Assembly (NCBI GenBank): GCA_014382715.1 | Contig: JACNJD010000124.1 | Coordinates: forward strand, 1 to 61,389 | Length of the DNA: 61,389 nt | Reading direction: 5' to 3' | DNA from: Candidatus Desulfacyla euxinica | Lineage (GTDB): Bacteria > Desulfobacterota > DSM-4660 > Desulfatiglandales > Desulfatiglandaceae | In this document: piece by piece, positions 53,212 through 60,854 of the stretch | How positions within the stretch are numbered: position 1 is the stretch's first letter | Layout of the letters: every line of letters starts with the position of its first letter | Notes under the pieces: generated by a model | Database searches by the model: none | Seen by the model: the letters and a program-made list of their open reading frames with translations, nothing else | What the model was told of the DNA's origin: nothing | Made by a program: the position numbers and the translations under genes

Positions 53212-55818
53212 TTGATCCGGAAGGAGGCAGATTCAAAAATACGAAAACGGAAGACCCTCATTATTGACCTGGTTATGATGGGTGCAATCTTTTCCTTTCT
53301 CCTGTGCTACTTTGAGCCGCACCTCCTTTTTTCAAAGACAATCACCACCGGAGGGGACACCGGGTCCCATTACTATACGGCAGAGTACCTGAAAAACTAT
53401 CTTCTGCCCCGGATGAAGGTGTCCGGATGGTGCCAGGGAAATCTTGCAGGCTTTCCCATGCTGCAGAACTACTTTCCCTTCCCTTTCTTTTTGATGGCCC
53501 TCCTTTCGTGGGTGATCCCTTTACAGATCTCTTTTAAGCTGATTACCGTTTTAGGGACCTTCCTTCTCCCTCCCTGTACCTATCTCTTCTTTCGCCTTCT
53601 GAAACAACCTTTCCCTGTTCCTGTCATGGCCGCTGTCTTTACACTCCCGTTTCTCTTTATGGAAGGAAATTCCATGTGGGGCGGGAACATCCCCAGCACG
53701 CTTGCGGGCACATTCTGTTATAGTCTCGGGTTTGCCCTGGCAATTCTATGGTTCGGTCTGCTGTACCGCGCCATAACTGATCAGAAAGGGTGGGTGGGCT
53801 GCGCCATCCTTCTCGCCATGGTAGGCTTATGCCACGGGTATACCCTTCTTTTTGCCGTGTTTGCTTCCCTTTTTTTTGTGTTCACCAGAAAAAAAGTCGG
53901 TCCTAATGTCAGGACGCTGGCTCAAATTTATATTCTTGCCTTCTTTCTGATGGCTTTCTGGTTACTCCCTCTTATTATCTTTCTTCCATATACCACCCGT
54001 TTCAGCATCCTCTGGATCTTCTTTAATTTACAACAGATCGGGAGGGAGATATTTCCGGTTATCCTCTATCCGTTCATAATTCTGGGTGTTTTAGGCCTTT
54101 TTGCGGCAATTCTGAAAAACGTGCGATCTTCGCAAGCATTGATCATGAAGCCCTGGATATATGTCTGGTTCCTGGCCTTTTGCGGGGTTGCGCTTTACTG
54201 GGTCGGGTATAGGATTGGGGTTGTTGATATACGATTCCTCCCTTTTCTGCAGTTTTTTCTGATTGTGGCAGGGGCTATTGTTTTTTCTCTGGCAGCTTCT
54301 CATAAAAAAGTATCTGTGCTGGTGGCCTTAATTGCCATTATCCTTACCTTTTTGTGGGTTGATGACCGGGAAACCTTTATAAGGAACTGGATCAGATCCA
54401 ACTACACGGGATTTGAGAGTAAACGATTGTGGGCGCCATTTATTTCGGTCAACCGGTTTCTGAAGGGCTCACCCGGAGACCCAAGGGTGGTATACGAACA
54501 CAGTATGGTTCATCAGGGGGCCGGCACGGTCAGGGCCTTTGAATCGCTTCCCCTCTTTTCAGGCCGGTCTACCCTGGAGGGGGTTTATATTCAGGGGAGC
54601 CTCTCGGTCCCTTTTATCTTTTATCTCCAGTCCGAGATTTCCCGAAAAGCCTCAACACCGATACCCGATTATAATTATTCACGATTTAATCTGCAAAGGG
54701 GGTTTGAGCATTTAAAGCTATTCAATGTCGGGGAGCTTATTGTTGCGGAGGCGGAAACTAGGGAAGCCATAAAGGGTTTTCCAGGTTTCGAGTTCCGGTA
54801 CAGGGCAGGGCCCTATGAGATATATGAGTTGGAAACCGGGTCCAAAAGATATGTGGAGCCGTTAAAATACAAACCGGTTCTGGTCACCAAAGGGGACTGG
54901 AGAAGGTTGTTTTATAAATGGTTTCGATTAGGAGATCTTGCTGTCCCTATTGTATTCAAGAATGAAGTGGAGGATGGAGATAAGCTCAGGTTTCATATTA
55001 TGGAAACGCCGGCTGTCAGGAAGCTTCCTAAAGAATCGCTACAAGGGTATGGTTTGGTCCAGGAAACTGTCAGGGAGGAAGAGATTGTCATAGAGGGTGC
55101 ATCACCGGGGAAACCGCTCATGGTCAAGATTTCTTATCATCCCAACTGGAAGGTGGAAGGGGCTGGAAAGATATATCTGGTTTCACCGGCCTTTATGCTC
55201 ATCTATCCTGAATCCTCAAAGGTACGGCTATATTTTGGGCGCACATGGCCTGATTACGTCGGTGCCTCGATGACGGCCCTCGGCATTTTGTTTATTCTAC
55301 TCGCCAGTGTGTATGATATGTCCGGGATACGGGATCGCATGTCTAACTGGTTTGATCGCCACTGTTTAAGAGGGTTTCTGGTATTTATGGGGATAGCCGT
55401 AGTGGCGGCCGCCTACTATCTGATTCGTCTCTCACCCGAGTTTCCGGTGCTTTCATATAACAAAGGTATCCAATATTTTACCCAAAAAGATTTTTCAAAG
55501 GCCAGGCAATATTTCAAAGAGGTGCTTCAACGGTTTCCACAGACGCTGATTGTGGATCAGGCTGCATATCACTACGCCATGTGCTTTTTCAGGGAAAAAG
55601 AGTGGGATCGTACGATCCGTGCACTGGAATCGCTTCTTGAGGATTATCCCGAGACCGGTAGGGCTGGAGAAGTGCTCTATCATATGGGTCTCTGCTATAT
55701 GAAATTGGGTAAGATCGGAGATGCGCGGGAATATTTTTCAAGGACAGTGAACGAATTCCCGGATCAGGTGTGGGCGCAATTTGCCAAGGATCGTTTAAAG
55801 GAGATTCAGGGTCGATGA
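53212..55818 (+). CDS. Large polytopic membrane protein (GT-C-like, PTPS-related/YfhO-like N-terminal region) with C-terminal TPR repeats
   Basis: 868 aa. Contains GGDTGSHYYTAEYLKNYLLP..GW..GFPMLQNYFPFPF, more than 10 TM segments, a soluble middle domain, and TPR-like units at the end (..YHYAMCFFREKEW.., ..LYHMGLCYMKLGK..). The start is uncertain (TTG 53212, or ATG about 53275). Confidence 0.5.
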   Translation: MIRKEADSKIRKRKTLIIDLVMMGAIFSFLLCYFEPHLLFSKTITTGGDTGSHYYTAEYLKNYLLPRMKVSGWCQGNLAGFPMLQNYFPFPFFLMALLSWVIPLQISFKLITVLGTFLLPPCTYLFFRLLKQPFPVPVMAAVFTLPFLFMEGNSMWGGNIPSTLAGTFCYSLGFALAILWFGLLYRAITDQKGWVGCAILLAMVGLCHGYTLLFAVFASLFFVFTRKKVGPNVRTLAQIYILAFFLMAFWLLPLIIFLPYTTRFSILWIFFNLQQIGREIFPVILYPFIILGVLGLFAAILKNVRSSQALIMKPWIYVWFLAFCGVALYWVGYRIGVVDIRFLPFLQFFLIVAGAIVFSLAASHKKVSVLVALIAIILTFLWVDDRETFIRNWIRSNYTGFESKRLWAPFISVNRFLKGSPGDPRVVYEHSMVHQGAGTVRAFESLPLFSGRSTLEGVYIQGSLSVPFIFYLQSEISRKASTPIPDYNYSRFNLQRGFEHLKLFNVGELIVAEAETREAIKGFPGFEFRYRAGPYEIYELETGSKRYVEPLKYKPVLVTKGDWRRLFYKWFRLGDLAVPIVFKNEVEDGDKLRFHIMETPAVRKLPKESLQGYGLVQETVREEEIVIEGASPGKPLMVKISYHPNWKVEGAGKIYLVSPAFMLIYPESSKVRLYFGRTWPDYVGASMTALGILFILLASVYDMSGIRDRMSNWFDRHCLRGFLVFMGIAVVAAAYYLIRLSPEFPVLSYNKGIQYFTQKDFSKARQYFKEVLQRFPQTLIVDQAAYHYAMCFFREKEWDRTIRALESLLEDYPETGRAGEVLYHMGLCYMKLGKIGDAREYFSRTVNEFPDQVWAQFAKDRLKEIQGR

Positions 55819-56507
55819 GGGATGCTCAGGGATTGACGGTGTTCGTACCGGTCTTCAACGAGGAGGCCTTGCTGTCTTCAAACACAAGGCGTTTGCAGGA
55901 ATACCTTGAATCCCTTAAAATCCCATATGAGATTATCATAGGAAGTAACGGTTCAACAGATGGAACTGTCCGGATTGCCGAGGAGCTGTGTCAGCAATAT
56001 CCCGAAGTGCGCTTTTTTCACCTTTCCGGGAAAGGGGTGGGAAAGGCATTCATTGAAGGAGTAAATATATCAAGATACCCCCGGATAATAACGGTTGATA
56101 TGGATCTATCAATCAATCTTGGATTTATTGCCGAGGCCTATTGGCTGCTCGATCGATATGACATGATCATAGGTTCCAAGGTGACGGGGAGTCAGAAGCG
56201 GTCATGGGTTCGGAGGCTGGCCAGCATTTCTTTTATCCGGCTTGCCAAAATTCTTCTTCGTATCAATTTTCACGATTATTCGATTGCCGCAAAAGGGTAT
56301 CGTAAGACGCTTGTGGAAAAGTATCTCCCTTTTCTTGACGATAAGACATTTTATGTGGTCGAAATTACTTGCCGGGCGTACCAGGATGGGAAGACACTCA
56401 GGGAGATATCGGTCGAATGCGAGGATAGGAGAGAAAGCCGTTTCAACCTGATACATGAAGGGGTTTACAAGTTTTACAATCTTTTCCGGTTATGGCTTTC
56501 AAAATAG
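55815..56507 (+). CDS. GT2 glycosyltransferase (DPM1 / dolichyl-phosphate-glucose-synthase-like)
   Basis: Contains VFVPVFNEE..IIIGSNGSTDGT..TVDMDLS. ATG 55815 overlaps the upstream TGA (ATGA). Confidence 0.7.
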   Translation: MRDAQGLTVFVPVFNEEALLSSNTRRLQEYLESLKIPYEIIIGSNGSTDGTVRIAEELCQQYPEVRFFHLSGKGVGKAFIEGVNISRYPRIITVDMDLSINLGFIAEAYWLLDRYDMIIGSKVTGSQKRSWVRRLASISFIRLAKILLRINFHDYSIAAKGYRKTLVEKYLPFLDDKTFYVVEITCRAYQDGKTLREISVECEDRRESRFNLIHEGVYKFYNLFRLWLSK

Positions 56508-56520
56508 GGCAGACGGAAAA

Positions 56521-59915: not shown

Positions 59916-59960
59916 ATTGGAGGCATTTTCTCCGTGTATTCTGCGGGCTCTGTGAGAGAC

Positions 59961-60854
59961 CTATTGGTCTGAGTCAGGGTCATGCTTTAGCGATCTTTTT
60001 ACGTGTTCTCTTATTATGACGATGATAAGGATAGCAGCGAGGACCGCTGCCAGAGAAATCCACAGCCATCTGAACCTTCTGAACAGGTTCTCGTCTTTGG
60101 CAACCGTAACAAGAGTCCTGGTTACAGCTGTATAATGTGTATCTTCTGCGTCGTATTCAAAATAACAGAAGATCGGATAGATGGCGCCAGGAAGGGCGGA
60201 AAAATTGCCGATTTCAAAGTCCAGAGCTTTTTCAGCCCGCTGGTTGATGTCAACGGTTTTCCTGGCTTGAGGTGTTGAGAATTCTTTGGGAAGAACAAGG
60301 GTCGCGAGGATCTTTTGCGATTCGAACCCCAGGTTTTTTAGGTTGAACCGCAAGATGCGGTTTTTATTTAAAGTGATATCCTTGGCCTGGGCTATGAGAC
60401 TTGGATTCACGTCTTCACCAACATGGAAGGTCATCCCTGAAAGGGCTGAGAACGGGTATTGATTTGCATCGTGGAAATCCACACGGACGGTCATTGGATA
60501 ACGTCCTTTCCGGACCCCTGTAACGTTTCTTTCAAAGCGTGCACGGTCTGACTGTCCGGGATCGAGCTGTGGTATGACAGGTGAGTTCTCTTGTCGACCC
60601 AGGGCGTTTAAGTGAACCTGCAGGTTATAAGCAGGGGCCGTTCCGTTGTTGGTAAAGATAACGCTTGTCTTGAGTAAATCCGGTGTTACTTCCACCGTGG
60701 TTTGTGTCTCGATTTTAAGGATTCCGGCAAGCGCCGGGGCTGCGCATGCAAAGATCGAGGCAAACAGAATTGCAAATAAGCCAGATGCAGACCTCGTTAA
60801 GTCTCGCTCGAGGCGGGATTGAGTTGTTAAGTACTTATTGGTATTTGGACTCAT
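59961..60854 (-). CDS. Exported protein with two beta-sandwich-like repeats and a C-terminal TM anchor
   Basis: Has an N-terminal hydrophobic segment ending APALAG. Two similar ~100-aa segments follow (..NNGTAPAYNLQV.. and ..NLKNLGFESQKI..). The C-terminus reads WLWISLAAVLAAILIIVII. Confidence 0.5.
   Translation of the reverse strand: MSPNTNKYLTTQSRLERDLTRSASGLFAILFASIFACAAPALAGILKIETQTTVEVTPDLLKTSVIFTNNGTAPAYNLQVHLNALGRQENSPVIPQLDPGQSDRARFERNVTGVRKGRYPMTVRVDFHDANQYPFSALSGMTFHVGEDVNPSLIAQAKDITLNKNRILRFNLKNLGFESQKILATLVLPKEFSTPQARKTVDINQRAEKALDFEIGNFSALPGAIYPIFCYFEYDAEDTHYTAVTRTLVTVAKDENLFRRFRWLWISLAAVLAAILIIVIIREHVKRSLKHDPDSDQ

Follow-up and report, generated by a model that had tools for sequence, protein, structure and literature searches.

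A conserved six-gene locus of Candidatus Desulfacyla euxinica as a probable lipid-carrier-dependent glycosylation system with optional sugar-tailoring steps

Glycosylation in two steps, in which a family 2 glycosyltransferase (GT2) loads a lipid carrier and a glycosyltransferase of the GT-C fold transfers the sugar, underlies lipid A modification, the decoration of teichoic acids and O-antigens, and protein O-mannosylation. GtrB, ArnC and DPMS are polyprenyl-phosphate glycosyltransferases, and Dpm3 and GacJ are small membrane partners that anchor or activate their GT2. In hopanoid producers the GT2 enzyme HpnI adds N-acetylglucosamine (GlcNAc) to bacteriohopanetetrol, HpnK deacetylates the product and HpnJ contracts the ring to a cyclitol ether. 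We know of no characterised two-step GT2/GT-C glycosylation that includes radical S-adenosylmethionine (rSAM) chemistry. Here we describe six genes between positions 53,212 and 60,854 of a DNA stretch of 61,389 nucleotides from Candidatus Desulfacyla euxinica. This stretch, called the window, is one contig (C259) of a metagenome-derived assembly of 4.0 Mb in 392 contigs, which is 84% complete. We propose, with a probability of roughly 60%, that the six genes work as one system for extracytoplasmic glycosylation, which depends on a lipid carrier and has optional steps for tailoring the sugar.

The genes lie in two convergent operons, as listed below.

53212..55818, plus strand: GT-C-fold membrane glycosyltransferase with a tetratricopeptide repeat (TPR) tail, 868 aa (PF10131 'PTPS_related' and TPR families)
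55815..56507, plus strand: soluble GT2, 230 aa (PF00535)
56606..57697, minus strand: double-GNAT acyltransferase, 363 aa (N-terminal Acetyltransf_9; fold like that of N-myristoyltransferase, NMT)
57691..59070, minus strand: rSAM enzyme with an N-terminal B12-binding-like domain, 459 aa (Radical_SAM PF04055)
59067..59915, minus strand: YdjC-family de-N-acetylase, 282 aa (PF04794)
59961..60854, minus strand: beta-sandwich membrane protein, 297 aa, first gene of the minus-strand operon (assigned from its predicted structure)

All six open reading frames were found with the coordinates and overlaps given in the original prediction. The stop codon of GT-C and the start codon of GT2 share the letters ATGA at 55815-55818, as read in the sequence, and from the coordinates YdjC and rSAM overlap by 4 nt and rSAM and GNAT by 7 nt.

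The neighbourhoods of relatives of the rSAM enzyme were collected and the six window proteins were mapped onto them. Neighbours were counted in 78 loci, and the class-wide set comprised 209 genomes. The full arrangement, i.e. GT-C and GT2 convergent on beta-sandwich, YdjC, rSAM and GNAT, was found in at least 11 loci of the family and in most family loci that are long enough, and it is conserved in more than 20 genomes. This arrangement exceeds chance. One locus (L089) is reshuffled with all six genes still together, rSAM, GT-C and GT2 being convergent there on GNAT, YdjC and beta-sandwich. In Methylomirabilota (L097) the genes GT-C, GT2, YdjC, rSAM and GNAT are all co-directional; a 310-aa open reading frame upstream of this operon was considered as the beta-sandwich protein and rejected, not being a homologue. 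Distant relatives, in which rSAM is 39-47% identical, have beta-sandwich, GT-C, rSAM and GT2 on one strand without YdjC and GNAT. This one-strand core was found in other Thermodesulfobacteriota, Acidobacteriota, Planctomycetota (Brocadiaceae), a gammaproteobacterium and Elusimicrobiota, and in Aenigmatarchaeota these four genes likewise lie together, but on convergent strands. The four-gene core recurs in six phyla, archaea included.

Co-occurrence was evaluated apart from gene order. A GT-C orthologue is present in every one of the rSAM-family genomes (23/23), compared with 31 of the 209 class genomes overall, and the other genomes of the window's genus have neither an rSAM nor a GT-C orthologue (0/5). 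GT-C is unlinked from the rSAM operon in five genomes, among them the isolate Desulfatibacillum alkenivorans DSM 16219. There the orthologue lies elsewhere, is 48-64% identical and is followed by GT2 in 5/5. The most frequent neighbour of rSAM in the 78 loci is GT2 (44), followed by beta-sandwich (31), GT-C (26), YdjC (24) and GNAT (23), and no further gene family recurs around rSAM in these loci.

Natural variants separate the genes into two groups. In two genomes of one genus (G131 and G127, genus g44), beta-sandwich, YdjC and GNAT are convergent on GT-C and GT2, rSAM is cleanly absent and YdjC abuts GNAT (L165, G131:C127, 5747-8507; L166, G127:C217, 33-2855), with GT2, GT-C and beta-sandwich intact. 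Two other loci (L012, L013) carry beta-sandwich, rSAM and GNAT without YdjC. The trio of YdjC, rSAM and GNAT, for which a neighbourhood survey had been suggested, recurs in one rSAM clade, where YdjC and GNAT are additions to the core, and natural variants lack rSAM or YdjC. Because some variants lack only rSAM and others only YdjC, these two are regarded as optional tailoring functions. The six genes are one functional unit, in which GT2, GT-C and beta-sandwich are the invariant core and YdjC, rSAM and GNAT are optional, modular tailoring steps. Such a pattern of core and optional genes is typical of glycan pathways. The role of the convergent GT2 and GT-C/TPR pair as the invariant core had been overlooked in the original prediction.

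The GT-C protein matches PF10131 with 134.2 bits and TPR families at the C-terminus in Pfam. PF10131 is a member of the Pfam GT-C clan CL0111 without known function (PMC7801869). According to hydropathy the layout is approximately 11 transmembrane (TM) segments, a large soluble domain at about 386-680, two further TM segments and the TPR tail at about 740-868, i.e. a polytopic membrane topology with about 13 hydrophobic segments in total. The motif G47-G48-D49-(T)-x-(S)-H53 (GGD49TxSH), which follows the first TM segment, is invariant or nearly so in 25 homologues from 6 phyla. Judged by sequence, the protein has both features expected of a GT-C enzyme, namely clan membership with polytopic topology and a conserved acidic residue in the first extracytoplasmic loop.

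The GT2 protein matches PF00535 with 75 bits in Pfam and has a GT-A fold with a DMD motif within 'VDMDL'. Its nearest relatives of known structure, according to a sequence search of PDB, are GtrB, ArnC and DPMS (E = 4e-9 to 5e-6), and the protein is probably a polyprenyl-phosphate (N-acetyl)hexosamine or hexose synthase. No TM or hydrophobic segment was found by hydropathy, whereas GtrB and ArnC have TM helices at the C-terminus. Enzymes of the Dpm1 type are TM-less, as is the GT2 here, and need a membrane partner.

The beta-sandwich protein may be such a partner. Its AlphaFold2 (AF2) model (pLDDT 91.1) has an N-terminal signal or anchor helix, which is followed by a tandem pair of beta-sandwich domains and, at the C-terminus, by a TM helix. 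Foldseek matches are tandem Ig/FnIII-like sandwiches, e.g. RbmA and the C-terminal domains of transglutaminases, and the only Pfam match, to CARDB, is below threshold. The family has 593 representatives at E <= 1e-30 and no Pfam model, and in 6 phyla its gene is a direct neighbour of GT-C. Its conserved regions lie on the extracytoplasmic side, and the tail in the cytoplasm is short and varies between members. Among metagenome proteins there are predicted fusions of beta-sandwich with a PF10131 GT-C/TPR protein (P0183, P0193; 1120 aa) and predicted fusions with a GT2 domain ahead of beta-sandwich (P0178, P0258; 490-502 aa). Since the GT2 is without a TM segment and fused forms exist, the beta-sandwich protein is probably, by analogy, the anchor of GT2 or a subunit of the GT2/GT-C machine.

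We placed the rSAM enzyme among the B12-rSAM families, and it falls outside the HpnJ clade. It matches Radical_SAM PF04055 with 85.8 bits in Pfam, and its best NCBIfam matches are HpnJ (TIGR03471, 158.2 bits with a cut-off of 577.6) and BchE (154 bits). True HpnJ proteins of the same class reach 655-758 bits on TIGR03471, and the identity of the window's rSAM to these canonical HpnJ proteins is 27-28%. In a tree of 93 sequences the rSAM family (80 rows) and the canonical HpnJ proteins of the same class (6 rows) form separate clades, each with 100% support in the Shimodaira-Hasegawa approximate likelihood ratio test (SH-aLRT); a second HpnJ-like family is also separate from the window rSAM family. 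The rows linked to YdjC or GNAT constitute one sub-clade (100% SH-aLRT). The CxxxCxxC motif is formed by C210, C214 and C217 and is invariant in 79 sequences. Further invariant positions are specific to the family and all missing from HpnJ: D81-R-W-Q-C85-P, E205, L255-E256, Q283, C302, H306 and H377. The closest solved relative is AprD4 (6fd2) of apramycin biosynthesis, with E = 1e-24. AprD4 also has a B12-binding-like domain and presumably works without cobalamin. HpnJ membership is ruled out by score, by the tree and by the distribution in genomes without squalene-hopene cyclase (shc), and on sequence grounds the enzyme represents a distinct family that is neither HpnJ nor BchE.

On TIGR03471 a third family resembling HpnJ scores about 280-320 bits; it occurs in several genomes of both kinds, i.e. 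with HpnJ or with the window-type rSAM (e.g. G074:C24, G133:C2, G043:C75).

The YdjC protein was likewise placed among its relatives. It matches PF04794 with 196.5 bits (threshold 29.7) over its full length, residues 2-269, for a model of 266 positions, and it is the sole YdjC match in the genome. The score on HpnK (TIGR03473) is 149.9 bits with a cut-off of 232.6, similar to that for the ChbG chitobiose deacetylase (148 bits). YdjC proteins adjacent to HpnJ in this class are also under the HpnK cut-off (182 and 158 bits), so the cut-off does not discriminate here. In the tree the rSAM-linked proteins (25 rows) and the HpnJ-adjacent ones (3 rows) are in separate clades with 100% support each, and E. 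coli ChbG is also apart. HpnK membership is ruled out by this tree. The original description of an 'HpnK/HpnJ-like pair' does not hold, given the 27-28% identity, the separate rSAM clade with its own motifs and the separate YdjC clade; the label would be valid at the superfamily level only.

The GNAT protein matches Acetyltransf_9 with 61 bits in its N-terminal part in Pfam. A sequence search of PDB gave nothing useful, and only the fold search was informative. The AF2 model (pLDDT 89.6, pTM 0.88) was submitted to Foldseek, where the top 50 PDB matches were all N-myristoyltransferases, over the full length, with a probability of 1.00 and TM-scores of 0.58-0.62; sequence identity to NMT is 12-14%. 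The assignment as a double GNAT was borne out by this full-length match. In an alignment of 23 sequences the C-terminus ...W..(T/S)YGDTD(I/V)x is conserved in sequence and in length. The C-terminal carboxylate of NMT is the catalytic base, and the C-terminal carboxylate of the GNAT protein may have the same function. The GNAT gene is confined to one rSAM clade. By analogy the enzyme plausibly re-acylates the amine freed by YdjC.

A second cluster in the window bears on this role. The gene at 38340-39380 (minus strand) had been called a paralogue of GNAT. It shares the invariant columns of the GNAT family and a C-terminal GD.D motif, which agrees with that description, and the identity is 22% (pairwise E = 0.005), so that the relationship is distant. 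The genes beside it are the following.

36802-38346, minus strand: PIG-L (GlcNAc de-N-acetylase) domain fused to GT2, overlapping the GNAT paralogue at 38340-39380 by 7 nt
40501-41481: GtrB-like GT2, beside the PIG-L/GNAT pair
41862-43616: TMTC-like GT-C/TPR gene, beside the PIG-L/GNAT pair

A sulfotransferase-like gene and a family 4 glycosyltransferase (GT4) also adjoin the pair. A deacetylase of a different superfamily is thus paired with the same type of double GNAT in a second GT2/GT-C cluster, and this pairing supports the logic of 'deacetylate, then re-acylate' for GNAT. Re-acylation by GNAT, as originally suggested, is plausible in view of this coupling of a distant paralogue to a non-homologous PIG-L deacetylase-GT2.

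The following order of events is proposed. On the cytoplasmic side, the soluble GT2, which the beta-sandwich protein probably holds at the membrane, would use a nucleotide sugar to charge polyprenyl phosphate with an N-acetylhexosamine (HexNAc). YdjC would then strip the N-acetyl group, as is done on undecaprenyl phosphate-linked N-acetylgalactosamine (Und-P-GalNAc) by NaxD, a member of the YdjC family (PMC11279074). In the third step rSAM would modify the carrier-linked sugar by radical chemistry with the anomeric phosphate kept, and candidate reactions are C-methylation, deoxygenation and epimerisation rather than a ring contraction of the HpnJ type. The NMT-like double GNAT would re-acylate the free amine. 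After flipping, the PF10131 GT-C would move the sugar to a periplasmic acceptor, with the TPR tail and the beta-sandwich partner as helpers. In this scheme we infer which carrier and which sugar are used, in what order the enzymes act, what rSAM catalyses, and which acyl donor and acceptor take part. Ring contraction of the Cds or HpnJ type puts the anomeric carbon into the carbocycle (PMC13459092). A reaction that leaves the linkage intact is favoured, because a GT-C enzyme needs a glycosyl-phosphate donor and ring contraction would destroy the anomeric linkage; this is an argument from reasoning. By the same reasoning the originally suggested radical rearrangement to a cyclitol would fit poorly with the tight coupling of GT2 and GT-C.

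A number of points weigh against the proposed glycosylation system. To our knowledge, no member of any of these families has been characterised biochemically. The GT2 is TM-less and its similarity to GtrB and ArnC is weak (E about 1e-9), and the fusion proteins are metagenome gene predictions that may be frameshift artefacts. No flippase gene is conserved near rSAM in the 78 loci. The match of rSAM to the B12-binding family PF02310, at 18 bits, is below the Pfam threshold of 32.1. The rSAM enzyme could act on a nucleotide sugar, on the acceptor or on a protein instead of the carrier-linked sugar. The variants without YdjC (L012, L013) still keep GNAT, and the amine acylated there is unexplained. 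Finally, the association with shc is positive, since 16 of the 18 genomes with an rSAM orthologue also have shc, and in one clade the cluster adjoins shc. A hopanoid-related acceptor in this lineage is possible.

The last point leads to the first alternative, that the genes are a hopanoid head-group pathway which decorates bacteriohopanepolyols in this lineage and replaces HpnI, HpnK and HpnJ. The hopanoid side chain would then be either the acceptor of GT-C or what GT2, YdjC and rSAM act on directly. The whole genome was searched for shc and hpn genes. On contig C310 (3848-6711) the shc gene, which passes its cut-off with 794 bits, was found with an hpnG-like gene behind it. Contig C301 (1-5151 and 8932-10674) carries an HpnN-like RND transporter, an ornithine-type (HpnO-like) aminotransferase, an HpnB that exceeds its cut-off with 406 bits, and ispH. 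No match reaching the cut-off was found for HpnH, HpnJ or HpnK in the 84%-complete assembly, and for HpnI (TIGR03472) no search of the whole genome was made; HpnB reaches only 47 bits on the HpnI model, for which the cut-off is 310. By its gene content the genome is that of a hopanoid producer. The original remark that no hopanoid genes were in sight is true of the window, but the genome has shc, hpnG-like, HpnB and HpnN-like genes on other contigs. No HpnH match exceeded 68 bits, which is unusual together with shc and may reflect the missing 16% of the genome or the gaps of N in C301 (5770-6593 and 7987-8192).

Besides these genes, the arrangement in one clade favours a hopanoid pathway, the cluster being divergent from shc-hpnG in L055/L057/L059 (= L079/L082/L084), L165 and L012/L013; in L165, which is rSAM-less, shc-hpnG is next door. 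The 16 of 18 rSAM-orthologue genomes of the class with shc can be compared with 44 of the 105 family genomes. In the class-wide set, none of the 15 genomes with canonical HpnJ is among the 18 with the window-type rSAM. This zero overlap is, however, close to the chance expectation at genus level, and mutual exclusion of HpnJ and rSAM as a functional replacement was therefore set aside. The adjacency to shc is confined to one clade and so corresponds to about one evolutionary event. The rSAM and YdjC proteins are outside the HpnJ and HpnK clades. Several genomes that lack shc carry the trio together with GT-C and GT2, namely D. alkenivorans DSM 16219, G210, G213, G072 (95% complete) and G076 (93% complete), and the core cassette occurs in the shc-less families f2 (0/34 with shc) and f5 (0/3) and in archaea. 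We know of no GT-C enzyme that acts on hopanoids. Because shc-less genomes carry the trio, hopanoids are not required, and a strict dependence on them is ruled out by these carriers. The replacement of HpnI, HpnK and HpnJ by these genes is unlikely, and the original suggestion that they cooperate on something other than a hopanoid is supported.

Alternatively, rSAM might modify a protein, either beta-sandwich or GT-C, before its export or insertion, with the glycosyltransferases acting separately. The beta-sandwich gene is the second commonest neighbour of rSAM after GT2 (31/78), and B12-rSAM families that act on peptides (ApyD and methylases of ribosomally synthesised and post-translationally modified peptides) are among the weaker NCBIfam matches. 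The most constant partner is nevertheless GT2 (44/78), including loci that have no beta-sandwich gene. The beta-sandwich protein has its conserved regions outside the cytoplasm and a short, variable tail within it, and it is unchanged in the variants without rSAM. We consider a protein target rather improbable.

In a third alternative, the trio makes a soluble metabolite derived from an aminosugar or resembling an aminocyclitol, such as a thiol cofactor or an aminoglycoside-like compound, and the link to GT2 and GT-C is loose. AprD4, the closest solved relative of rSAM, belongs to apramycin biosynthesis, and MshD of mycothiol synthesis is a double GNAT too. The trio is also found away from GT-C and GT2 in Desulfatibacillum and in two Desulfatiglandales genomes. 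Against a loose link stand the co-occurrence with GT-C in 23/23 genomes and in 5/5 where it is unlinked, the co-directional layouts and those that are reshuffled yet clustered. The ancestral context of rSAM is GT2 and GT-C without YdjC and GNAT, and no other biosynthetic genes are conserved nearby. A soluble product is accordingly given a small probability. That two unrelated operons converge here by accident, to which the opposite strands and the 98-bp gap without a shared regulatory signal might point, is contradicted by synteny, co-occurrence, gene-order permutations and fusions across phyla and has next to no probability.

In the scan for promoters and terminators, which covered 52900-61389, counts matched the shuffled expectation, and in the 98-bp gap between the convergent operons no shared regulatory signal was found. 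Between the first gene of the minus-strand operon and the contig end there are 535 bp. At 61089-61330, read on the minus strand and upstream of the operon, this stretch contains palindromes rich in GC that follow the pattern tcccgcg..cgcggga. Repeats of cgtgcatcgtgtatcgtgcatc form a short run in the same stretch, in which 'Element Z' of the original prediction is also located. In family f5 (L064, 7009-8979; L066, 4282-6252) the core cassette is followed on the same strand and with tight spacing by a pyridoxal phosphate (PLP)-dependent (PALP) enzyme and an RlmH-like SPOUT methyltransferase, which are probably unrelated housekeeping genes.

If the lipid-carrier glycosylation system operates as proposed, it would place on the cell surface an amino sugar that is N-acylated and modified by radical chemistry. 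A conserved rSAM enzyme with GT2 as its most constant neighbour points to a new sugar modification at the level of the carrier. In the literature search no description of a GT2/GT-C cassette with rSAM was found. A microsynteny survey around shc names hpnL, hpnM, hpnS and hpnT and none of the genes described here (bioRxiv 10.1101/2025.07.29.667474). We suggest tentatively, at somewhat less than even odds, that this is the first rSAM family to tailor a sugar on a polyprenyl-phosphate carrier. It would do so within a previously undescribed machine of PF10131 GT-C, TM-less GT2 and two-domain beta-sandwich protein, present in at least six bacterial and archaeal phyla and extended in Desulfatiglandales, Desulfatibacillum and Methylomirabilota by de-N-acetylation and NMT-like N-acylation. 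The rSAM family is widespread in anaerobes and occurs in some archaea, and the cultured carrier D. alkenivorans makes the pathway experimentally accessible. Members of the family are routinely annotated as BchE or 'HpnJ-like'. Separating them avoids the false inference of hopanoid cyclitol ethers or of bacteriochlorophyll from metagenomes, and the correct label matters for the interpretation of biomarkers in Desulfobacterota, which do produce hopanoids.

Compared with known systems, the locus resembles HpnI/HpnK/HpnJ in its enzyme superfamilies and in the order of GT2, YdjC deacetylase and B12-type rSAM. HpnJ is also the best-scoring NCBIfam model for rSAM, and one clade of the cluster neighbours shc. 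It differs in that rSAM and YdjC belong to separate clades and the invariant residues of rSAM are others, in that its GT2 is, unlike HpnI, short, soluble and Dpm1/GtrB-like, and in that the system is obligatorily coupled to GT-C and occurs in shc-less genomes.

The pairs GtrB/GtrV, CsbB/YfhO, GacI-GacJ/GacL and Dpm1-Dpm3 with PMT or TMTC share the principle that GT2 makes a polyprenyl-phosphate sugar and GT-C transfers it outside the membrane. The small membrane partners GacJ and Dpm3 parallel the beta-sandwich protein, which is found fused to GT2, and the TMTC enzymes have a TPR tail. In these pairs, however, there is no rSAM, deacetylase or N-acyltransferase step, and the partner here has two extracytoplasmic beta-sandwich domains, unlike GacJ and Dpm3.

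As for single enzymes, the GNAT protein is like NMT in its predicted fold over the whole length and in the strict conservation of its C-terminus. It is unlike NMT in being a bacterial protein with 12-14% identity and a likely amino-sugar acceptor, where NMT has the N-terminal glycine of a protein. The calditol synthase Cds of Sulfolobus and AprD4 are rSAM enzymes, as is the enzyme here, and remodel a sugar ring; the sugar of Cds is attached to a lipid (PMC13459092). The ring contraction by Cds would leave no transferable glycosyl donor. Cds is likened here by description, and AprD4 as the closest solved relative of rSAM.

The systems FlmF2/NaxD/FlmK of Francisella, LgmA/C/B of Bordetella and ArnC/ArnD/ArnT of E. 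coli modify lipid A with an aminosugar via undecaprenyl phosphate. They have three functions in common with the scheme proposed for the locus, namely a GT2 that charges polyprenyl phosphate with a sugar, a deacylase for the carrier-bound sugar and a GT-C for the transfer on the periplasmic side. NaxD belongs to the YdjC family, as does the deacetylase here (PMC11279074), and ArnC is among the nearest solved relatives of the GT2. From the context of GT2 and GT-C, YdjC may be a NaxD-type deacetylase of a carrier-linked HexNAc. Several features set the locus apart: the GT-C is not an ArnT-family enzyme but a PF10131 protein that includes a large soluble domain and ends in a TPR tail, the GT2 is TM-less, and rSAM, the NMT-like N-acyltransferase and the beta-sandwich membrane partner are added. 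Re-acylation would cancel the positive charge that those lipid A systems create, and the core cassette is also found in archaea, which have no lipid A. By analogy, FlmF2/NaxD/FlmK or ArnC/ArnD/ArnT would be the best match among described systems, to which a radical step and N-re-acylation would be added here.

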